Source: an uncultured Candidatus Rokubacteria bacterium (GTDB lineage Bacteria > Methylomirabilota > Methylomirabilia > Rokubacteriales > DASRDR01). Taken from it: a stretch of DNA of 48,869 nt. Positions within the stretch are counted from its first letter, which is position 1. Each line of letters starts with the position of its first letter. Below the pieces are notes generated by a model. That model did no database searches and was not told where the DNA came from. It saw only the letters and a program-made list of their open reading frames with translations. Positions 17,502 through 32,933 of the stretch are shown here, piece by piece. The stretch spans positions 1 to 48,869 of the forward strand of contig CAVPSB010000038.1 in assembly GCA_963708025.1 (NCBI GenBank). The letters are read 5' to 3'. The translations under genes were made by a program, and so were the position numbers.

Positions 17502-19817
<2,316 letters not shown>

Positions 19818-19822
19818 GGCGG

Positions 19823-21133
19823 TCAGGCGGGGTAGGCCGGCTTGCGGCCGATCGAGTGGTACTCGAACCCGAGCCTCCGCATGCGGTCCGGCTCGTAGAT
19901 GTTGCGCCCGTCGAAGATCAGCGGGCGGCGCATCACCCCCCGGAGCCGCTCCAGGTTCAGGAGCTTGAACTCGTTCCACTCGGTCACGATCGCGACGGCG
20001 TCGGCGCCTTCGGCGGCCTCGTAGGAGGAGGGACAGTACTCCACGGTGTTCGGGAGCAGGCTCCGGGCGTTCGCCATGGCGGCCGGATCGTAGGCGCGGA
20101 CCCGGGCGCCGCCCTCCAGGAGCCCGGTGATCACCTCGACGCTCCGGGCCTCCCGCATGTCGTCGGTCTTCGCCTTGAAGGCCAGCCCCAGGACGGCGAC
20201 GACACGGTCCTCCAGCGGGTCGAGGACCTTTCGCACGAGCGCGACGAAACGCTGCGCTCGCTCGCGGTTGACCTCCACCACCGAGCGGAGGAGCCGGAAG
20301 TCGTAGCCGCGGCTGGCCGCCGTCTGGACCAGCGAGTCGGTGTCCTTGGGGAAGCAGGAGCCGCCGTAGCCGAGGCCGGGCTGGAGGAACTCCCGGCCGA
20401 TCCGGGGGTCCAGCCCCATCCCCTTCACCACGTGGGTCACGTCGGCGCCGGACAGCTCGCAGAGGTTGGCGATCGCGTTGATGAACGAGATCTTGGTGGC
20501 CAGGAACGCGTTCGACGCGTACTTGATCATCTCGGCCGACGGCACGTCGGTGATGATCATCGGCCGCTCGAGAGGCGCGTAGAGCTCGAGCAGCGTCATC
20601 GCGACCTGCTGGTTCGGCGCGCCGATCACGATGCGGTCGGGGCGGAGGGTGTCCTCGATGGCCGACCCCTCCCGCAGGAACTCGGGATTGGAGACGACGT
20701 CGAAGTCCACCGGACGGCGGCGGTTGCGGGTGATGATGTCCCGGACGAGGTCGCCGGTCCCCACCGGGACCGTGGACTTGTTGACGATCACCTTGTACCG
20801 ATCGAGCGCCCGGGCGATGCCGAGGGCGACCTCCTCCACCGCCGAGAGATCGGACTCGCCGCTGGCCTTGGACGGCGTGCCGACCGCGATGAAGACAATG
20901 TCGGAGCGCCGGACCGCCTGGGCCAGGTCGGTCGTGAAGGCCAGCCGGTGGTCGTCCGCGTTCCGGTGGACCAGCTCCTCCAGGCCGGGCTCGTAGATCG
21001 GCATCTGCCCGGACCGGAGCATCTCCACCTTGGCGGCGTCCTTGTCCACGCAGACCACGTCATTGCCGAGGTCCGCGAAGACAGCGCCGGTGACGAGCCC
21101 GACGTAGCCGGTCCCCACCACCGCGATGTTCAT
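19823..21133 (-). CDS. ugd: UDP-glucose 6-dehydrogenase
   Basis: GTGYVGL, NKSTVPVGT, SNPEFLREG, KYASNAFLATKISFIN, GYGGSCFPKD, FDGRN. Confidence 0.96.
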   Translation of the reverse strand: MNIAVVGTGYVGLVTGAVFADLGNDVVCVDKDAAKVEMLRSGQMPIYEPGLEELVHRNADDHRLAFTTDLAQAVRRSDIVFIAVGTPSKASGESDLSAVEEVALGIARALDRYKVIVNKSTVPVGTGDLVRDIITRNRRRPVDFDVVSNPEFLREGSAIEDTLRPDRIVIGAPNQQVAMTLLELYAPLERPMIITDVPSAEMIKYASNAFLATKISFINAIANLCELSGADVTHVVKGMGLDPRIGREFLQPGLGYGGSCFPKDTDSLVQTAASRGYDFRLLRSVVEVNRERAQRFVALVRKVLDPLEDRVVAVLGLAFKAKTDDMREARSVEVITGLLEGGARVRAYDPAAMANARSLLPNTVEYCPSSYEAAEGADAVAIVTEWNEFKLLNLERLRGVMRRPLIFDGRNIYEPDRMRRLGFEYHSIGRKPAYPA

Positions 21134-23051: not shown

Positions 23052-23210
23052 GTGTCGAGGCCCCTGCGTGTCCTGATCCTGGAAGACAACCCGGCCGACG
23101 CCGAGCTGATCCTCCGCGAGCTGCGCCGGGCGGGCTTCGATCCCCGGGTCCAGCGGGCGGAGACGGAGGCCGAGTACCTGACCGCCCTGGAGTCGCCGCC
23201 CGACGTCATC
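23052..23210 (+). pseudogene. Truncated response-regulator receiver fragment
   Basis: MSRPLRVLILEDNPADAELILRELRRAGF...PPDVI. Similarity stops just before the phospho-Asp. Confidence 0.7.
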
Positions 23211-23312
23211 GGCGGCCGGAGGACTCGTCGCGACGTCGCTGGGCGCCTGCGCTATACTGGACCTGCCGGTCGAGCGGTCCCGAGTGACGGCCGTCCGCCC
23301 CTAGGAGGATCC

Positions 23313-24503
23313 GTGGATTTCACGCTGAGCCCCGAGCAGGAGGCCTTCCGGGACGAAGTGCGCGCCTGGCTGCGCGCGAACCTCCCCCCCGACTGGGCGT
23401 CGCGGCCCACCACCGACATCCCCCGCGCCGAGATGTACGACTTCGGTCGCCGCTGGCAGCGGAAGATGTACGACGCCGGGCTGCTCGGCATCACGTGGCC
23501 CAAGGAGTACGGGGGCCGCGGGCTCACCTGGATGGAGGAGCTGATCTTCCACGAGCAGCTCACGCTGCACAAGGCGCCTCCGCCGCTCAACATTCTGGGG
23601 ATCGGCATGGCCGGGCCCACGATCATCGCCTACGGCACCGAGGAGCAGAAGAAGCGCTACCTGCAGAAGATCCTGACCGGCGAGGAGATCTGGTGCCAGG
23701 GCTACTCCGAGCCGAACGCGGGCTCGGACCTGGCCTCGCTCCAGACCCGGGCGGTCCGCGACGGGGACCACTACGTCGTCAACGGCCAGAAGGTCTGGAC
23801 GAGCCTGGCCCACATCGCGGACTGGATGATGCTCCTGGCCCGGACCGACCCGAGCGCGTCCAAGCACAAGGGGATCACCTACTTCCTGCTCGACATGCAC
23901 GCGCCGGGCGTCACCGTGCGCCCGCTCCGGCAGATCACCGGGGACGCCGAGTTCAACGAGGTCTTCTTCGAGAACGTGCGGGTGCCGGCCGCCAACATCC
24001 TGGGCGAGCTGAACCAGGGCTGGTCGGTGGGCATCACCACGCTCATGTACGAGCGGCTGGCCCTCGGCTTCGGCCTTCAGGCTCGCTTCCAGATCGCGCT
24101 CGACTCGACGCTGGGCCTGGCCCGGCGGATGCGCCGGAACGGCGGGACGGCGGCCCAGGACCCGGTGATGCGCCAGAAGCTCGCCCAGCTCGTCATCGAC
24201 AACGCCGTCTTCAAGTACACGGCGGCCCGCGCGATCACGAAGCTCCTCAAGGGGGAGCTGCCCGGGCCCGAGGCCTCGGCCGGCAAGATCTGGTGGTGCG
24301 ACCGCCACCAGGCGCTGCAGGACGTCGGCCAGGAGCTGCTCGGCATGTACGGCCAGCTCGCCAAGGGGTCCCCGTGGGCGGTCGACGACGGCCTCTGGCT
24401 GTACTCGTTCCTGAGATCGCGGGCGAACTCCATCGAGGGCGGCACCACCGACATCCAGCGGAACATCATCGGCGAGCGGGTCCTCGGCCTCCCCAAGGAT
24501 TGA
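23313..24503 (+). CDS. Acyl-CoA dehydrogenase
   Basis: GTG with AGGAGG RBS. WCQGYSEPNAGSDLASL, NGQKVWTS, EFNEVFF, SIEGGTTDIQRNIIGERVLGLP. Confidence 0.95.
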   Translation: MDFTLSPEQEAFRDEVRAWLRANLPPDWASRPTTDIPRAEMYDFGRRWQRKMYDAGLLGITWPKEYGGRGLTWMEELIFHEQLTLHKAPPPLNILGIGMAGPTIIAYGTEEQKKRYLQKILTGEEIWCQGYSEPNAGSDLASLQTRAVRDGDHYVVNGQKVWTSLAHIADWMMLLARTDPSASKHKGITYFLLDMHAPGVTVRPLRQITGDAEFNEVFFENVRVPAANILGELNQGWSVGITTLMYERLALGFGLQARFQIALDSTLGLARRMRRNGGTAAQDPVMRQKLAQLVIDNAVFKYTAARAITKLLKGELPGPEASAGKIWWCDRHQALQDVGQELLGMYGQLAKGSPWAVDDGLWLYSFLRSRANSIEGGTTDIQRNIIGERVLGLPKD

Positions 24504-24568: not shown

Positions 24569-25720
24569 GTGGACTTCGGATTCAGCCAGGAGCAGGACCT
24601 CCTCCGCCAGACCGCCCGCAGCTTCCTCGAGAAGGAGTGCCCCTCCGCCTTCGTGCGGCGGATGATGGACGACCCGGCCGGCATCACCGACGAGCTCTGG
24701 CAGAAGCTGGCCGAGCTGGGGTGGCTCGGCTTGATCTATCCCGAGGCGTACGGCGGCGTCGGCCTCGGGCTCGTCGATCTGACGGTGATCCTGGAGGAGA
24801 TGGGCCGGGTCGTCATGCCCGGGCCCTTCTTCTCCACGGTGCTCCTCGGCGGCCGGGCGCTGCTCGAGGCCGGCTCGGAGTCGCAGAAGAGCGCGTGGCT
24901 GCCCAAGATCGCCGCCGGGGAGGCCCGCGCCACCCTTGCGATCGCGGAGGAGCTCCCCGGCTGGGACGCCGGGGCGATCCAGCTCGCGGCGAAGCCCGGG
25001 AAGAAGGCGGGCCGCTTCGTGCTCTCGGGCACGAAGCTCTTCGTACCGGATGCCCACACGGCCGACTTCCTCGTCGTCGCCGCCCGCACCGCCCGGCCGA
25101 CCAAGGAGGACGCCCGTCACGGCGTCAGCCTGTTCCTGGTGCCGGCGGGCGCCGATGGGGTCCGGACGACCGTGCTGCCGACGATGGACCAGACGCGGAA
25201 GCTGTGCGAGGTCACCCTGTCCCGGGTCGAGGTGGGGCCGGAGGCCCTCCTCGGCGCCCTCCATCAGGGCTGGGGTCCGCTGGCGCGGGTCCTCGACCGG
25301 GCCACCGTCGGCCTGTGCGCCGAGATGTGCGGCGGCGCCCAGCGCGTCCTCGACATGTGCACCGAGTACGCGAAGATCCGCGTCGCGTTCGGCAAGCCGA
25401 TCGGCACCTATCAGGCGGTCAAGCACAAGTGTGCCGACATGCTCGTCGCCGTGGAGAACGCCAAGTCCATCACCTACTACGCGGCGTGGGCGGTGGACGA
25501 GAACGTGCCCGAGGCGCCGCTGGCCGCCTCGATGGCCAAGGCCTACGTCTCGGATGCCTTCCGCAAGGCGGCCGGCGACGGGATCCAGATCCACGGCGGC
25601 ATCGGCTTCACCTGGGAGCACGACCTCCATCTCTACTTCAAGCGGGCGAAGGGCTCCGAGGTGACGTTCGGCGACGCGACGGCCCACCGGGAGCGAGTGG
25701 CCCAGCTCGTTGCGTTGTAA
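24569..25720 (+). CDS. Acyl-CoA dehydrogenase (partner subunit type)
   Basis: RVAFGKPIGTYQAVKHKCADM, QIHGGIGFTWEHDLHLYFKRA. Confidence 0.93.
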   Translation: MDFGFSQEQDLLRQTARSFLEKECPSAFVRRMMDDPAGITDELWQKLAELGWLGLIYPEAYGGVGLGLVDLTVILEEMGRVVMPGPFFSTVLLGGRALLEAGSESQKSAWLPKIAAGEARATLAIAEELPGWDAGAIQLAAKPGKKAGRFVLSGTKLFVPDAHTADFLVVAARTARPTKEDARHGVSLFLVPAGADGVRTTVLPTMDQTRKLCEVTLSRVEVGPEALLGALHQGWGPLARVLDRATVGLCAEMCGGAQRVLDMCTEYAKIRVAFGKPIGTYQAVKHKCADMLVAVENAKSITYYAAWAVDENVPEAPLAASMAKAYVSDAFRKAAGDGIQIHGGIGFTWEHDLHLYFKRAKGSEVTFGDATAHRERVAQLVAL

Positions 25721-25778
25721 GCGACCCCGCCGGGCCCGTCCGCGGGCCCTGGTGGCCCCTCCGGAGCAGTCCCATTTC

Positions 25779-25808
25779 TTGACTGGCCGGCCGGAACCTC
25801 GCTATGCT
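25779..25808 (+). promoter_or_regulatory. Putative sigma70 promoter of the amidase-MamK operon
   Basis: TTGACT-N18-TATGCT about 45 bp upstream of ATG 25851. Confidence 0.6.
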
Positions 25809-25850
25809 CCAGGGGTCATGTGAGCCGAAGTCGGCTCATCCGGGGCCGGG

Positions 25851-26870
25851 ATGCCGCAACTGGACCGAGTCAAGCGTCAACTCGTCAGCGAAGTGGTGCG
25901 GGAGAACGTCGAGACTCTTCGCGGCCTCCCGCCCCGACAGCTTCGCCGTCCCCGCCGCCGCTTTCCCCGGTTCGCGCTGCGAGGGGTCGGGCTCGTGCTC
26001 GCGCCCAGCCTCCTCTTCGTCGTGATCAGCGTGATGGCAACGGGCCAGGCCGAGCGCCCCGCCGCCCTCGCCCGGCCGGCGTCCGCGCCGTCCGCGCCGT
26101 CCGCGCCGGAGCCGATCGCGCCGACCGCCGAGAGCCTCCCGGTCCCGCAGGCCATGAGCCCGGTCGCGTTTCCGCTCGAGGTGCGGAAGATCATCCTCGA
26201 TCCCGGCCACGGGGGGGTCGACCCCGGGGCACCGGCCACGGGAGGGCTGTGGGAGAAGGACGTCACCCTCGACGTCGCGCGTCGCCTGAAGGCGCTCCTC
26301 TCCGAGGCGGGGTTCGCGGTCCTGATGACCCGCGAGAAGGACGAGACCGTCTCGCTCCGGGAGCGCGCCCAGTTCGCCAACGACCAGAAAGGCGATCTCT
26401 TCATCTCGATCCACTTCAATGCGCTCCCGACCCGGAGCTACCGGGGCCTGGAGACGTACTATCTGGGGGCCACCAAGGAGAAGCACATCGAGCGCCTGGC
26501 CGGCGCCGAGAACCAGGCGTCGGGTTACTCGATGGCCGACTTCCGGCGCCTCCTCGAGGGCGTCTACACCCACGTGCGGCAGAAGGAGTCCAAGCAGCTC
26601 GCCGAGGCCGTCCACCAGGGGCTGGCCACGTCCCTGGTGAAGGGCAACCCGGCGATCCGTGACAGCGGCGTCAAGCCGGCCCCGTTCCTCGTCCTGGTCG
26701 CCACCGAGATGCCCGGCATCCTGGCCGAGGTGTCCTATCTGTCCAACGACGAGGACGCGCGGCTGCTCGCCCAGCCCGGCTACCGGGCGGAGATCGCCCG
26801 GGTCCTGTTCCAGGGCATCCGCGCCTACGCGGATGCGCGGAACAAGCCCCGGCCCCAAGGGAGTGCATAG
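25851..26870 (+). CDS. N-acetylmuramoyl-L-alanine amidase (Amidase_3), N-terminally membrane-anchored
   Basis: IILDPGHGG, EKDVTL, ISIHFNA, LAEVSYLSN (Zn ligands and catalytic Glu). Basic N-terminus, hydrophobic segment GVGLVLAPSLLFVVISVMA, Pro/Ala linker. Confidence 0.93.
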   Translation: MPQLDRVKRQLVSEVVRENVETLRGLPPRQLRRPRRRFPRFALRGVGLVLAPSLLFVVISVMATGQAERPAALARPASAPSAPSAPEPIAPTAESLPVPQAMSPVAFPLEVRKIILDPGHGGVDPGAPATGGLWEKDVTLDVARRLKALLSEAGFAVLMTREKDETVSLRERAQFANDQKGDLFISIHFNALPTRSYRGLETYYLGATKEKHIERLAGAENQASGYSMADFRRLLEGVYTHVRQKESKQLAEAVHQGLATSLVKGNPAIRDSGVKPAPFLVLVATEMPGILAEVSYLSNDEDARLLAQPGYRAEIARVLFQGIRAYADARNKPRPQGSA

Positions 26871-26871
26871 G

Positions 26872-27894
26872 ATGAGCACGAAGAAGAACGAGACGCTGCG
26901 CGTCGGCATCGATCTCGGCACCTCGCGCAGCTCGATCTCGGCCTCGAACGGGGCCCGCCACGTGGTGGACAGCTACGTCGGCTGGCCCGTCGACACCGTG
27001 GCCCGCAAGATCGTGAAGAAGCCGATCCTGTTCGGCCGCGAGGCGCTCGACAACCGGCCGATGCTGGAGCTGCACCGGCCGCTGGAGCGGGGCCTCATCA
27101 AGGAAGGCTCGGAGAAAGACGAGGCGGCGGTGCGCGAGCTGCTGCGGCACCTGATCTCGCTGGCCGGCGAGCCCGAAGGCGAGAAGGTGTTCGCGGTGGT
27201 CGGCGTCCCGGCCGAGGCCCTCCGGGTGTCCAAGCAGCACCTGCGGAACGCCGTGAAGGGCATCGCCGATGCCCTGATGATCGTGTCCGAGCCCTTCGCG
27301 GTGGCCTACGGGATGGACTCGCTGCTCCACACCATGATCGTCGACATCGGCGCCGGCACCACCGACTTCTGCGTCATGAACGGCCGCTATCCGAACGACG
27401 AGGACCAGCGGACCCTGACCCACGCCGGCGACTGGGTCGACGAGCAGCTGGTCACCCTCATCCGGGGCCGCCAGTCCGACGCCCAGTTCTCGGTCCACAT
27501 GGTGCGGGACTGGAAGGAGCGCTGGAGCTTCGTCGGCGAGCCGAAGGGGCCGGTCATGGTGACGGTCCAGGTGGGCGCGAAGGCGACGCCGCTCGACATC
27601 ACCAACGAGATGCGGCGGGCCTGCGAAGGCCTGGTGGCGCCGATTTCCGAGACGATGCTCGACCTGATCGCCCGCGTGGACCCGGAGTACCAGGAGCGGG
27701 TGCGGAACAACGTCGTCCTGGCCGGCGGCGGGTCGCAGATCCCGGGCCTGGCCGAGGCCCTCGAGCGCGCGCTCATGGAGGTCGGCGGCGGGAAGGTGCG
27801 CGCCGTGGAGGACCCCATCTTCGCCGGCTCGAACGGCAGCCTGGCCCTGGCCCTGGATGCGGCGGAGTCCGACTGGGAGCAGCTTCCCGGCTAG
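26872..27894 (+). CDS. mamK: MamK-like bacterial actin
   Basis: 340 aa. GIDLGTS, VVGVPA, VSEPFAVAYG, IVDIGAGTTD, EDQRTLTHAGDWVDEQL, KERWSFVG, DPEYQ...NVVLAGGGSQIPGL, DPIFAG...DWEQL. These follow MamK-specific rather than MreB motifs. Confidence 0.85.
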   Translation: MSTKKNETLRVGIDLGTSRSSISASNGARHVVDSYVGWPVDTVARKIVKKPILFGREALDNRPMLELHRPLERGLIKEGSEKDEAAVRELLRHLISLAGEPEGEKVFAVVGVPAEALRVSKQHLRNAVKGIADALMIVSEPFAVAYGMDSLLHTMIVDIGAGTTDFCVMNGRYPNDEDQRTLTHAGDWVDEQLVTLIRGRQSDAQFSVHMVRDWKERWSFVGEPKGPVMVTVQVGAKATPLDITNEMRRACEGLVAPISETMLDLIARVDPEYQERVRNNVVLAGGGSQIPGLAEALERALMEVGGGKVRAVEDPIFAGSNGSLALALDAAESDWEQLPG

Positions 27895-27899
27895 TTCTT

Positions 27900-27926
27900 T
27901 CGGGGAGGTCTCGGAAGACCCCCCGA
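27900..27926 (+). terminator. Hairpin immediately after the MamK-like stop (possible terminator or repeat unit)
   Basis: TCGGGGAGGTCT-cgga-AGACCCCCCGA, with no strong U-tract. Confidence 0.4.
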
Positions 27927-28084
27927 TTCCCCCCTTCGGTCGCGCCGGCCGGACTCCCCACGCCAGAGGCGCAAAGCGCCTCCGCGTGGAATGGGCGCTC
28001 GGAGTGCTGTTCGATGCGCGACTCCCCGGGCAACCTTCCCGAGGGTGAAGCTCTCGGGGGCGGGGTCGAGGAGCGAGCAGCGCC

Positions 28085-28237
28085 CCAAGGCCGAAGGCCG
28101 TCTGTAGGACGCAGGGAGTCGCCGACCGCAGGCGTACTCCGAGTACGCCGAGGATCGGCGACGACCCCAAAGGCCGAAGGCCGTCCGAACGACGACCATA
28201 GGTCGGGACGGACGCCCACAGGCCGAAGGCCGTCCGA
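28085..28237. repeat. Three direct copies of AGGCCGAAGGCCGTC
   Basis: Copies within 28085-28102, 28167-28188 and 28216-28237, separated by unrelated hairpin-forming spacers. Confidence 0.85.
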
Positions 28238-28467
28238 TCGACGTAGGCCGAGCGCGTCCCGACCGAGATGGACGTTGCGACGCTCATCGGCCCCGCCCGC
28301 TAGCGGCAGCGTAGGTCCGTGTCGGGTCGAGCGGTCCGGGGCCCGGCGGGGCCGAGCGGGGACGAGGCGGCGCCCACCGCGAAGCACTCGGTCAGCGAGT
28401 CCAGCGCATGATGCCCCCTTCCCCCTCCCGACTCCCTTCCCTTCGTCAGCGTCTGCTGCCTGGTTTA

Positions 28468-28603
28468 TCAGGCCGACATGAGGAGACGGTGAATCCGGGA
28501 TGAGAAGTGCTCGGCCGGGCGACCGTCTTCTACCAGAAGAGTAGGACCCCGCCGGTATGCGGCCGCCATTCCTCCTTCTCACTTCCGTCTCACATCGCTT
28601 TCA
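28468..28603. promoter_or_regulatory. Two oppositely oriented 11-bp-periodic TGA/TCA repeat clusters (putative OmpR-family boxes)
   Basis: TGA at 28479, 28490, 28501. TCA at 28579, 28590, 28601. Confidence 0.6.
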
Positions 28604-28630
28604 TCTGCGGCTATTGACGAGCTGGCCTTC

Positions 28631-29386
28631 CTCGACCTGGAACGCTATCGGGTGTTGTGGGCGCAGGATTCCATCCCCAAGCAGCAGCTGGACACCCGGG
28701 AGTCCCTGGTGCGCCAGTACGAGGGCGCGGTCAAGAACGATCAGGGTCTGATCGAGTCCATCAAGGTGCAGCTCGTCTACTGCCGCATCACCTCGCCGAT
28801 CGGCGGGCGAGTCGGACTGCGCCTCGTGGACGAGGGAAACATCATCCACGCGGCAAACACCAACGGGATCGTCGTGATCACGCAGCTCCAGCCGATCGCG
28901 GTGCTCTTCACGATCCCCGAGGACAGCATTCCGTCGGTGCTCGACCGGCTGCAGCACGGCCTCCGCCTGCCCGTCGAGGCCTTCGACCGCGAGCAGCGGC
29001 GAAAGTTGTCGGCGGGGTCGCTGCTGACCATCGACAACCAGGTCGACCCGGCCACGGGGACGGTCCGACTCAAGGCCGTGTTCGGCAACGCCGACAATCG
29101 GCTCTTCCCCAGCCAGTTCGTGAACGCGCGCCTTCAGCTCGACGTCAAGCGCGGGGCGACGGTGGTGCCGGCCGCCGCCATCCAGCGCAGTCCGCGCGGG
29201 CCCTTCGTGTACGTGGTGAAGCCCGACCAGACGGTCGAGGCGCGACCGGTCACCGTCGGCGTGACCGATGGCGACAACGTCTCGATCGACACCGGTCTGC
29301 GCGTCGGCGAGCCGGTCGTGGTGGATGGCGCGGAGAGGCTTCGCGACCGCAGCAAGGTGGAGCTCCAGACCCGGGGCGGCGCGTGA
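28631..29386 (+). pseudogene. mdtA: MdtA-family RND membrane fusion protein, 5'-truncated
   Basis: [48 protein letters not shown]. The N-terminal anchor and first domains are missing. Confidence 0.85.
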
Positions 29387-31150
29387 ACCCGTCGCGGCTG
29401 TTCATCCTGCGGCCGGTGGCGACGACTCTGCTGATGGCCGCCCTCCTGCTCGGCGGCGCCCTCGCCTACCGCCTGTTGCCGGTCTCCGCCCTGCCCCAGG
29501 TGGACTACCCCACGATCCAGGTCCTGACCGCCTATCCGGGGGCGAGTCCCGAGGTCATGGCGTCATCGGTCTCCGCGCCGCTGGAGCGCCAGCTCGGGCA
29601 GATGCCGGGGCTCAACCAGATGACCTCGACGAGCTCCGGTGGCAGCTCGGTCATCGTCCTGCAGTTCGCCCTGAACCTCGGGCTCGACGTGGCCGAGCAG
29701 GAGGTCCAGGCGGCGATCAACGCGGCCTACACGCTGCTGCCACCCGATCTGCCGAATCCTCCCGTGTACAGCAAGGTGAACCCGGCCGACACGCCGATCC
29801 TCGCGCTGGGACTGACGTCGACCACCCTGCCGCTGCCCCAGGTCGAGGATCTGGCGGACACCCGGCTCGCTCAGAAGATCGCCCAGTTCCCGGGGGTGGG
29901 GCTGGTCAGCATCAGCGGCGGCCAGAGGCCGGCCGTGCGCGTGCAGGCCAACCCCACCGCGCTCGCGGCCTACGGCCTGACCCTCGAAGACCTGCGAACG
30001 GCCCTGGCCGCCGCCAACGTCAACCAGGCCAAGGGCAGCTTCGACGGTCCCCGGCAGTCCTCGGTGTCGCTCACGATCTCGCTCATCGCCGTGCTCATCC
30101 CGCTCTTGTTCATGGCCGACGTGGTGGGCCGCCTCTTCCGCGAGTTCGCCATCACGCTCGGCATCACCATCCTCATCTCGGCCGTCGTTCTCTCACCCTG
30201 ACGCCGATGATGTGTGCCCGGCTGCTGCACCCCACGCCACCGGACCGGCAGGGGGGACTCTACCGCTGGTCGGAGCGGACGTACGACCGGATCATCGAGG
30301 GCTACGGCACGACCCTCTCCTGGGTGCTCGGCCACCAACCCGCGACCCTCCTGGTGGCGGCGACCACGCTGGTTCTCACGGTCATCCTGTACATCGTGGT
30401 GCCGAAGGGCTTCTTCCCGGTCCAGGACACCGGGGTCATCCAGGGCATCTCCGAAGCGCCGCAATCGATCTCGTTCCCGGCGATGGCCGCGCGGCAGCAA
30501 GCCCTGGCCGCCGTGATCTTCCGGGATCCGGCCGTCGAGAGCCTGTCGTCGTTCATCGGTGTCGACGGCACCAACGTCACGCTCAACAGCGGGCGGATCC
30601 TCATCAACCTGAAGCCCCGGGCCCAGCGCAAGCTGAGCACGACCGACGTCATCCGGCGGCTCCGGCCGGCGCTGGCGAAGGTCGAGGGCGTCACGCTGTT
30701 CATGCAGCCGGTCCAGGACCTCATCGTCGAGGACCGGGTGAGCCGCACGCAGTACCAGCTGAGCCTCGAGGATCCGGACGGAGCCGAGCTCGGCGCCTGG
30801 GCGCCGAGGCTGGTCGGCGCGCTCCACGCGCTGCCGGAGCTCTCGGACGTGAGCAGCGACCAGCAGGATCGGGGGCTCGAGATCGCCCTGGCGATCGACC
30901 GCGGCACGGCGTCACGACTGGGCATCACTTCCCAGCTCATCGACGACACGCTCTACGACGCATTCGGCCAGCGGCAGGTCTCGACGATGTTCACGCAGCT
31001 GAACCAGTACCGGGTCGTCCTGGAGGTCAAGCCCGATTTCCGGCGGAACCCCGGCGGGCTCCAGGACATCTACGTTCGCGGCGCGGTCGGCTCGCCCTCC
31101 TCCCCCGCCTCCCCAGGACCCGGGCCGGTGCCGCTCAGCGCGGTGACGCG
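29383..31150 (+). pseudogene. mdtB: MdtB RND permease with an internal deletion, a frameshift and 3' truncation
   Basis: [34 protein letters not shown]. Jumps at ~30060 from SFDGPRQS to [16 protein letters not shown], frameshifts at ~30190, includes [11 protein letters not shown], ends at VPLSAVTR. Confidence 0.88.
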
Positions 31151-31153
31151 GGC

Positions 31154-31723
31154 GTGGAGCTGAACCCGAACGCGTTGAGCAAGTACGGGCTCGGGCTCGA
31201 AGACGTGCGCACCGTGCTGAGCGCGACTAACGTGAATCGACCCAAGGGACAGCTGGCCGACGGCACTCGGGCCTGGGAGATCCAGACCAACGACCAGCTC
31301 CGCAAGGCCGCGGAGTACGCTCCGCTCATCGTCGCCTATCGATCCGGGCAGGCGGTGCGGCTCGCCGACGTGGCCAGCGTCGACGACGCGGTCGAGGACC
31401 TCCGGACGGCCGGGCTCGTCAACGGCCGGCCCGCGGTGATGCTGGTCATCTTCCGGCAGCCCGGCGCCAATATCATCGGCACCGTCGATCGCGTCCGCGC
31501 TCTGATCCCGCAGCTCCAGGCGTCGATTCCCGGCGCCATCGATCTGGCGGTGGTCCTCGATCGCAGCACGACGACCCGGACGTCCCTGCACGAGGTCGAG
31601 CGGACCCTCGTGACCTCGGCCGTGCTGGTGACGCTCGTGGTGTTCGTCTTCCTGCGAAGCGTCCGGACCACGATCATCCCCGCCGTGGCGGTGCCCGTCT
31701 CGCTCGCCGGCACCTTCGGCGTG
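31154..31723 (+). pseudogene. mdtC: Internal fragment of MdtC RND permease
   Basis: [19 protein letters not shown]...[13 protein letters not shown]...[17 protein letters not shown]. Confidence 0.8.
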
Positions 31724-32933
31724 ACCCGCGCCGGCTACTTTCCGACGGCCGCGGCCGGGGCCTCCGTGAACCGCTCGCGTCAATCCTCGAACGTGGGCGG
31801 AGTGTCGGGCGCCGGCGGAAGCGTCTCGGCGCCGGGCCGCACCACGACGGAGTACGCGTTGCCCCTCGACGTGGCCTGGGAGCTCGATCTGTGGGGGCGG
31901 ATCCGGCGGACGGTCGAGTCCAGCCGGGCGAGCGCGCAGGCCGGCGCGGCCGACCTCGAAGCGGCTCGCCTGAGCGCCCAGGCCGAGCTGGCCCAGGACT
32001 ACTTCGAGCTGCGCGCGCTCGATCGGCAGAAGCAGTTGCTGGACGCGACGGTCTCGGCCTACGAGAAAGTCCCTCGAGCTGACCCGCAACCGGTACGCGG
32101 GCGGCGTGGCGTCCCGGGTAGACGTGGCCCAGGCGGAGACGCAGCTCGAGACCGCCCGGGCGCAGGCGATCGACGTCGGCGTCCAGCGCGCCCTGCTGGA
32201 GCACGCGATCGCGGTGCTCGTCGGAGCCCCCCCGGCGGGCCTCTCGATTCCGGTGGCCCCGCTGGCCACGGTGCCGCCCCCCATCCCCGCCGGCGTGCCC
32301 TCGGTGCTCCTCGATCGCCGCCCCGACATCGCGGGCGCCGAGCGTCGGGTCGCGGCGGCGAACGCCCAGATCGGGGTCGCCCAGGCCGCCTTCTATCCGA
32401 CCATCACGCTGAGCGCCTCGGGCGGCCTCGTCAGCTCGGCGCTGTCCACGCTGTTCGCGTGGCCCAGTCGCGTCTGGGCGATCGGGGCGGCGATCTCGGC
32501 CACCGTGTTCGACGGGGGCTTGCGGCGGGCGCAGACCGACCAGGCGCGGGCGGTCCATGACGCGACGGTGGCGTCCTATCGGCAGACGGTGCTGACCGGA
32601 TTTCAAGAGGTGGAGGACAATCTCGCCACGCTCCGCATCCTCGCGGAAGAGGCGCAGGTGCAGGACGACGCGGTGAAGTCCGCCCAGGAGTCCGTGACGC
32701 TGACCACGAACCAGTACAAGGCCGGGACCGTGAGCTACCTCAACGTGATCACGGCGCAGACGATCGCCCTGACCAACCAGATCACCGCGGTCGAGATCCT
32801 GGGCCGGCGGATGACGGCGGGCGTCCTCCTGATCAGGGCGCTGGGCGGCGGCTGGGATGCCTCACGCCTCCCCTCCGCCCAGGAGGTGACTCGCGACGAC
32901 TCGCGCCGGGGAGCCGCCCGGGACCGTCGGTGA
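31724..32933 (+). pseudogene. Outer membrane efflux factor (NodT/OprM family), 5'-truncated and frameshifted
   Basis: [11 protein letters not shown], frameshift at ~32070, [36 protein letters not shown]. Confidence 0.85.

Follow-up and report, generated by a model that had tools for sequence, protein, structure and literature searches.

Bacterial actins are put to very different uses: MreB guides wall synthesis, FtsA anchors the division ring, ParM pushes plasmids and MamK aligns magnetosomes. To our knowledge, none of them is wired directly to a wall hydrolase. The question of such a link is raised by a stretch of 48,869 nucleotides from an uncultured soil bacterium of Candidatus Rokubacteria (hereafter the window), in which the gene of a peptidoglycan amidase is followed, after a single base, by that of an actin resembling MamK. 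What does an actin of this kind do beside an amidase? A preliminary description of this DNA had proposed a filament system unrelated to magnetosomes that positions a cell wall hydrolase. This proposal gains support here from a conserved, putatively cytoplasmic tail of the amidase and from a controlled complex prediction: the two genes form a conserved module, in which a cytoplasmic MamK-family filament probably positions or gates a periplasmic peptidoglycan amidase. The source genome (8.17 Mb in 49 contigs, 70% G+C, completeness 99.67%, contamination 8.18%) contains the window as its contig C38.

Pairing of the two genes and family of the actin

Both genes lie on the forward strand. The first (25851-26870) encodes a putatively bitopic N-acetylmuramoyl-L-alanine amidase of 339 residues, and its identity as a peptidoglycan amidase, already recognised in the preliminary description, is borne out by a match to Pfam Amidase_3 (3.9e-50). 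The second (26872-27894) encodes an actin-like ATPase of 340 residues, which hidden Markov models (HMMs), PDB matches and a tree place in an amidase-linked clade of the MamK family. The amidase stop codon (TAG, 26868-26870) and the actin ATG at 26872 are indeed one base apart, and a Shine-Dalgarno-like AAGGGAG, read from the sequence at 26857-26863 (forward strand), lies within the 3' end of the amidase gene, 8 nucleotides (nt) ahead of the actin ATG.

A genome scan, limited to one genome per species, yielded 80 loci with actins 61-87% identical, in metagenome-assembled genomes (MAGs) labelled Rokuibacteriota/Methylomirabilota, Thermoanaerobaculia, Holophagales, other Acidobacteriota, Binatia and 'Deltaproteobacteria', with Myxococcota-labelled ones among them. 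A full-length amidase homologue was found directly upstream and on the same strand in 78 of the 80 loci, that is in all 78 informative ones, the contigs of the 2 others ending less than 140 nt upstream. The intergenic gap took the values -4 and +1 nt in 22 loci each, and in 61 of the 78 it lay between -4 and +6 nt. A sister subfamily was scanned in metagenome contigs with protein P0126; of the outgroups in the tree it stands nearest, its identity to the window actin is 52%, and its cluster includes a Nitrospira MAG protein. Here too, the amidase was directly upstream, in 67 out of 67 metagenome loci having at least 700 nt of upstream sequence; the actins of this subfamily are about 49-55% identical to that of the window, and the amidases 31-44%. 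Whether homologues keep the amidase, a question left by the preliminary description, is answered by these counts. Flanking neighbours were compared by reference-locus tblastn and, apart from the amidase, none was shared throughout either of the two sets (160 loci).

As for its distribution, 19 of the 201 genomes sampled in the window's phylum carry the actin, with 15 carriers among the 16 genomes of the window's own family and a single one among the 125 of the largest other family. The phylum of genome G201 had 25 carriers among the 301 genomes sampled, and every carrier genome had a single match. At least 120 clusters (90% identity) are at least 76% identical to the window actin. Their sources mostly name them 'MreB', and public annotation of homologues reads 'rod shape-determining protein MreB', a label that conceals this actin family. 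The window's clade, made of Methylomirabilota-type actins (L011, L012 and the window), nests inside Acidobacteriota sequences (L016, L017) with a support of 99. Because of this nesting, and because carriers in the window's phylum belong almost exclusively to one family, the pair has likely moved between phyla by horizontal transfer.

The actin carries the six motifs that the preliminary description had ascribed to MamK, namely VSEPFAVAYG, DIGAGTTD, EDQRTLTHAGDWVDEQL, KERWSFVG, PEYQERVRNNVVLAGGGS and WEQL, and each of them aligns with its counterpart in solved MamK. The best solved structures were MamK 5ljw, 5jyg and 5ljv (2.6e-74 to 6.9e-74, residues 8-338 aligned), followed by BeeR 8r2n (1.8e-45) and MreB 1jce (5e-10). 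Actin-fold ATPase motifs are present, including the Glu of VSEPF (E140, by alignment to 5ljw), and D14, G16, T17, E140, D158, G160, G162, T163, D165, G285 and G286 are invariant across 64 actin homologues. Mean column identity was 77% for the actin and 47% for the amidase. The NCBIfam MamK model (NF040964) scored 376.3 bits, under its curated cut-off of 400, and the BeeR model (NF053558) 214.6 bits for a cut-off of 530; the three MreB models gave 58.4 (cut-off 293), 46.6 (365.75) and 42.7 (515) bits. When 1.84 billion representatives were searched with the actin, 190 proteins were retained at E ≤1e-30. MamK-model scores of 77 full-length representatives ran continuously from about 210 to 508 bits, so that the curated 400-bit cut-off marks no natural gap.

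Besides the window protein, the tree of 88 rows comprised 18 amidase-linked relatives and 68 representatives trimmed to the actin domain, and it was rooted on the MreB of the same genome. Representatives shorter than 325 amino acids (aa) or partly matched were left out, and the LG+G4 model was used in a quick search with SH-aLRT support, on a set comprising few named MamK anchors. Amidase-linked actins formed one clade (support 100), composed of the 19 such rows and of two further representatives. Rows named by their sources MamK or MamK-like of magnetotactic bacteria (P0206, P0191, P0160), together with the top-scoring P0158, formed a separate clade (support 98), and BeeR-like rows formed their own (support 100), weakly (84) sister to the amidase-linked group. 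No grouping with MreB was observed. Since its score is under the MamK cut-off and its clade stands apart from the MamKs of magnetotactic bacteria, the window actin is, by sequence comparison, a member of the wider MamK/BeeR family and a relative, not an orthologue, of magnetosome MamK. With this nuance, the earlier designation as a MamK-type actin is supported.

Fusions were sought in 22 long MamK-like representatives. In those of 700-1232 aa the MamK-like domain is at the C-terminus and the N-terminal part has no Pfam domain; none carries an amidase. Proteins of 700-1232 aa with a MamK-like C-terminus and 370-900 N-terminal residues devoid of any Pfam domain make up a clade of their own (support 99; P0131, P0135-P0137, P0140, P0141, P0143, P0145, P0147, P0149, P0155, P0157 and P0159). 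One of the long representatives, P0191 (768 aa, CAX83788), is a full FtsZ (TIGR00065, 351.5 bits) fused to a MamK domain (446 bits); it comes from an uncultured magnetotactic bacterium and bears the name 'Magnetosome protein MamK'.

The amidase, its tail and a third gene

Composition and predicted structure suggest that the amidase is a single-pass inner-membrane protein. Its N-terminal tail, residues 1-44 (25851-25982), consists of a conserved helix followed by a basic stretch, with 13 Lys+Arg against 4 Asp+Glu. The sole strongly hydrophobic stretch, with a highest 19-residue hydropathy of 2.37, spans residues 45-63 (25983-26039), and the predicted structure has a helix there (41-63). According to the positive-inside rule, the tail would therefore be cytoplasmic and the catalytic domain periplasmic. 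Between the membrane helix and this domain lies a Pro/Ala-rich, presumably periplasmic linker, residues 64-113 (26040-26189); it is poorly conserved (column identity 0.42 at residues 64-108), with a predicted local confidence (pLDDT) below 50 at residues 64-79 and no secondary structure at 64-103. The tail reaches a column identity of 0.66 (residues 6-26), against the low value of the linker. A helix is predicted there at residues 2-23, with block-mean pLDDT of 81-87, and the motif RLKRxxLRDAVRENxxxIEG is found; its N19 never varies, and at least 90% of the rows have E18. The core of this motif is kept in the distant sister subfamily (e.g. ILRGVYEENL, LQCVYEDNL). An HMM of the tail had no other match in the genome beyond the amidase gene itself.

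The Amidase_3 catalytic domain occupies residues 114-324 (26190-26822). Four residues, H120, E135, H188 and E293, are invariant in 64 amidase sequences; by homology, we take the first three to be the metal-binding His/Glu/His and the fourth to be the catalytic Glu. Closest solved structures were AmiB 3ne8, AmiC 4bin and AmiA 8c2o, and only with these did the alignment cover the full domain, through their insert; for the insert-less CwlD, LytH and CwlV types it was confined to residues 114-206. The insert of the window's amidase (residues ~206-262) is itself conserved, with a column identity of 0.70. In amidases of the AmiA/B/C type the insert is inhibitory, and keeps the active site closed until a LytM-type activator intervenes. 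Six Peptidase_M23 genes above the cut-off were found in the window's genome. The AmiC, AmiB and AmiA models gave 105, 91 and 91 bits, to be compared with cut-offs of 700, 532 and 400, Pfam found no AMIN domain, which serves for targeting in AmiB/C, in the protein, and its N-terminus, a basic tail and one transmembrane helix, is unlike the soluble exported form of AmiA/B/C. The linked gene is the only Amidase_3 gene of the window's genome, and a second, longer one exists in 5 out of 5 other carrier genomes tested.

We then asked what structure prediction makes of the actin together with residues 1-40 of the amidase (an alignment of 64 sequences for each), with controls run alongside. The complex obtained a score of 0.83 (0.82-0.84 over the runs), while none of the 3 controls exceeded 0.00. 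Of 157 solved complexes 116 attain that mark, as do 2 of 215 mismatched pairs; these counts are only approximate here since our own alignments were used. Runs shared at least 96% of their contacts, and pLDDT of the partner was at least 67. In the model, tail residues 4-25 contact actin residues 121-125, 135-138, 146-152, 171-173 and 326-339, the invariant N19 being placed against 135-137. Read from the actin fold, the contact site would be the groove between subdomains IA and IIA, together with the C-terminal helix that ends in W335-x-x-L338. The complex model thus supports binding of the tail to the actin.

Of the 69 loci that have at least ~1.7 kb of downstream sequence, 49, from Acidobacteriota, have a third gene 3' of the actin, and in 35 of them this gene begins with a 4-nt overlap of the actin stop. 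In its product, a conserved N-terminal region of ~70 residues is followed by a long stretch of low complexity and a hydrophobic helix; a Pro-rich linker then leads to a SPOR domain at the C-terminus, recognised by Pfam in 5 of 5 products tested (2e-6 to 9e-12). The N-terminal consensus resembles RMLPSVxEVxxEL...LFKAARxVxAEELxKVKQG and has no Pfam match. Examples, all downstream of the actin, are found at L017:5058-6194 and L030:5017-6465, among loci L015-L081. In the remaining 20 loci, among them the three of Methylomirabilota type, the downstream genes are unrelated. SPOR domains bind glycan strands stripped of their peptides, which are the product of amidases.

Possible role of the module

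The mechanism that we infer, from polymerisation and membrane topology to binding and the cellular process, would run as follows. The actin-like ATPase would presumably polymerise beneath the inner membrane, and the amidase would expose its tail of ~40 residues to the cytoplasm and its AmiA/B/C-type domain to the periplasm. The conserved amphipathic tail helix, with E18-N19 as its core, would bind the IA/IIA groove of the actin, beside the C-terminal W-x-x-L helix, and because of this binding the filament would control the place or the time at which stem peptides are removed from peptidoglycan. In many Acidobacteriota, the translationally coupled third gene would add a single-pass membrane protein with a periplasmic SPOR domain, which the filament would engage as well. 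The process served is likely daughter-cell separation or some other local remodelling of the wall.

Several points weigh against this scheme. Polymerisation, topology and binding rest on predictions, and the data do not single out which cellular process is served. A helix lodged in the IA/IIA groove is known from other actin-like systems, such as ParM with the tail of ParR, so that the success of the prediction may partly reflect remembered complexes. The same groove makes subunit contacts in actin-like filaments; the tail might therefore bind only monomers or filament ends, in which case it would regulate assembly and not act as cargo. No homologue of the third gene was found in the window's genome (tblastn with the L017 protein; best E of the N-terminal HMM 1.2), and the analogy with the three-gene form is thus not directly applicable in this lineage; SPOR proteins do occur elsewhere in that genome. 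In view of the second Amidase_3 gene in 5 other genomes, the linked amidase is not generally the housekeeping one. Finally, contigs of RNA libraries (4 runs, 4 studies) match parts of both genes, many of them deriving from relatives; contig X19 record 26 covers 26513-26663 and X16 record 12 covers 27118-27269, each with 0 differences, but none spans the 26870/26872 junction, and such libraries can contain DNA. These matches are at most a weak hint of transcription.

The roles of the two partners might also be reversed. It is conceivable, though unlikely, that the genes are co-inherited and co-expressed, that the amidase tail regulates the filament as a membrane nucleator, an anchor, or a capping or sequestering factor, and that the real job of the filament is elsewhere (another organelle, DNA, the membrane). 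That the predicted contact falls on a groove and C-terminal helix known as a subunit-contact site in other actin-like proteins would suit this view, and the actin, being far more conserved than the amidase, would fit a filament having further partners. However, no other conserved cargo-like neighbour was seen in the 160 loci except the SPOR protein, itself a peptidoglycan-binding membrane protein, and the catalytic residues of the amidase are invariant, which argues that its activity is under selection in the pairing. We consider it much less probable still that the module is a mobile or phage-derived cassette, joining a membrane-tethered lysin to a segregation actin like ParM or AlfA. Its patchy distribution, nearly all in one family within the window's phylum and similarly sparse in that of G201, is what such a cassette might leave, as is the nesting in Acidobacteriota, which suggests transfer between phyla; moreover, phage endolysins with Amidase_3 appear at ranks 28-33 of the amidase matches. 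Against this, the flanks are ordinary chromosomal genes that vary by lineage, in which no integrase, parC-like repeat or phage gene was noticed (no phage-library scan was made), there is one match per carrier genome, and the nearest structures are division amidases with a regulatory insert, AmiA, AmiB and AmiC, not lysins.

The two other explanations take the actin for one of its better known relatives. An MreB paralogue of the Mbl/MreBH kind, acting in ordinary rod elongation beside an amidase gene that is there by chance, is highly improbable. Public annotation points that way, and so does Pfam MreB_Mbl, at 64 bits for a low cut-off of 27, yet the NCBIfam MreB models remained at 43-58 bits where 293-515 are demanded, far from the 376 and 215 bits of MamK and BeeR, the tree groups the protein with MamK and BeeR relatives, and adjacency to the amidase is kept over about 50% sequence divergence. 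In addition, the window's genome has its own mreB-mreC-mreD on contig C2, with a canonical MreB (509 bits), and FtsA (444.9 bits) separately on contig C15; a canonical MreB is also present in the 5 of 5 other module carriers tested (482-503 bits). Judging from this gene content, the actin does not substitute for MreB or FtsA. Even less credible is a true magnetosome MamK, whether a remnant or a part of some magnetosome cluster located elsewhere in the genome. MamK is the best match of the actin, both by sequence and by HMM, with a score near the cut-off, but its clade is separate from that of MamKs named from magnetotactic bacteria. Three Mam families were searched in the whole genome: MamI gave no match, the best MamP score was 40.5 bits (cut-off 300), over a short stretch inside the model, and the best MamQ score 91.5 bits (cut-off 250). 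Neither is any of the 14 neighbouring window ORFs (open reading frames) scanned mam-like, in agreement with the preliminary description, and at all 145 informative loci it is an amidase, not mam genes, that stands beside the actin. As far as these searches tell, the module is unrelated to magnetosomes.

The reading we favour, a filament that positions or gates an amidase, can be extended further. The module may represent a large and old family of cytomotive filaments that carry or gate an amidase through its tail, the amidase riding the filament end as ParR does on ParM; it would be a wall-cutting machine steered from the cytoplasm, independently of MreB and FtsA, and the MamK of magnetosomes would be a later offshoot recruited to an organelle. 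We regard this extension as possible but doubtful.

Surroundings of the locus and known systems

Upstream of the pair, the promoter-like TTGACT-N18-TATGCT reported earlier was found at 25779-25808 (forward strand), 43 nt 5' of the amidase ATG. It is the sole such site in 25650-28150, where shuffles expect 0.1, and its consensus match alone designates it as a predicted sigma-70-like promoter. Downstream, the hairpin noted after the actin stop is present as a G+C-rich stem-loop at about 27901-27925 (forward strand, read from the sequence). A T-run is absent, and the 76-nt stretch following the stop folds no better than shuffles (z -0.62), so that it is not a convincing terminator and this role was rejected. 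A hairpin scan preferred to it a weaker stem at 27873-27890, which overlaps the actin stop codon.

The 14 neighbouring ORFs scanned comprise genes for sugar-nucleotide enzymes, LepA, an MFS transporter, a two-component system and two acyl-CoA dehydrogenases, as well as a degraded RND efflux operon. On the reverse strand, at 17502-19979, an NAD-dependent epimerase/dehydratase gene (GDP_Man_Dehyd, Epimerase) is split by an intein (Intein_splicing, 1.7e-19) with a LAGLIDADG homing-endonuclease domain (LAGLIDADG_3, 1.8e-10). The first acyl-CoA dehydrogenase (23052-24503, forward) has a longest ORF that begins 92 residues before the first Pfam domain. Its first ~45 residues resemble, in our judgement, the start of a response-regulator receiver domain, although Pfam reported none, and the extension may be due to a wrong start or be a gene remnant. 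Beyond the actin gene, ~750 nt of the forward strand are without credible ORF; then come an N-terminally short fragment of a membrane-fusion protein (28652-29386, partial HlyD_D23), an RND transporter spread over three overlapping frames (28657-30201, 29268-31163 and 30212-32560) and an outer-membrane factor (32106-32933, OEP), all on the forward strand. The whole region, 27895-32933, looks like a decayed efflux operon or the result of assembly frameshifts.

Turning to known systems, the window actin shares with MamK (5ljw, 5jyg, 5ljv; NF040964) the fold family, the length and all the motifs quoted above, the Glu of VSEPF and the W-x-x-L at the C-terminus among them. It differs by its score, its separate clade and the lack of a magnetosome cluster, its constant partner being a peptidoglycan amidase. 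BeeR (8r2n), its second-best HMM and PDB match and weakly supported sister in the tree, is the actin of Verrucomicrobiota that forms three-stranded tubes; it too is related to MamK, occurs in bacteria that are not magnetotactic and has no known function in the cell (PMC11929497). BeeR bears a disordered N-terminal extension of 30-50 residues (PMC11929497); the match of the window actin to the model begins at residue 9 of 340, 8 residues of the protein preceding the first phosphate-binding motif, and such an extension is therefore absent. Neither 'operon' nor 'gene cluster' appears in the main text of the BeeR paper (PMC11929497). Saltatorellin, a MamK-like actin of Saltatorellota which forms filaments in E. 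coli, is a MamK relative coexisting with MreB in a non-magnetotactic bacterium (bioRxiv 10.1101/817700). In that preprint 'amidase' has 0 occurrences, and no protein that we collected begins or ends like the primers given there (bioRxiv 10.1101/817700).

A full-text literature search, which did not cover the BeeR and Saltatorellota supplements, returned no paper in which an actin-like protein, of the MamK type or any other, is linked to an amidase or to a SPOR protein. What appears to be new is an actin-like cytoskeleton with a defined amidase partner; MamK relatives outside magnetotactic bacteria were already known, from BeeR and saltatorellin. Neither of these two has an assigned function, and the strict pairing with an amidase, together with the predicted docking helix, offers a first testable one for this branch of the MamK family, the predicted peptide-groove interface being a defined target for mutation. 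The module is also common in abundant, rarely cultured lineages of soil and sediment (Thermoanaerobaculia, Holophagales, Methylomirabilota and Binatia) whose cell biology is almost unknown, and amidase-linked actins bear on the origin of MamK.

Three other actin-based systems invite comparison. As in ParM-ParR, the partner is predicted to place a short amphipathic helix in the IA/IIA groove; here the partner is a wall enzyme and not a DNA-binding adaptor, no centromere was seen, and the genes are chromosomal and single-copy where found. With MreB-RodZ and the elongasome, the module would share the logic of a cytoplasmic actin-like filament coupled, through a single-pass protein, to peptidoglycan enzymes outside, but the actin family differs, the enzyme is a hydrolase instead of a synthase, and mreBCD are separate. 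A further parallel is the septum of E. coli, where FtsA contacts the short cytoplasmic tail of the single-pass protein FtsN, whose periplasmic SPOR domain reads the peptide-free glycan left by AmiA/B/C. In the present case the actin is MamK-like and FtsA is encoded separately, the genes form one operon, the amidase itself is apparently membrane-anchored with a tail, in contrast to a soluble periplasmic enzyme with an AMIN domain, and the window's lineage links only two of the three parts. The Acidobacteriota form, in its 49 three-gene loci, has all three kinds of parts in one operon and, since domains of the SPOR type bind the peptide-free glycan made by amidases, it resembles by analogy the FtsA-FtsN-amidase circuit built on a different actin.

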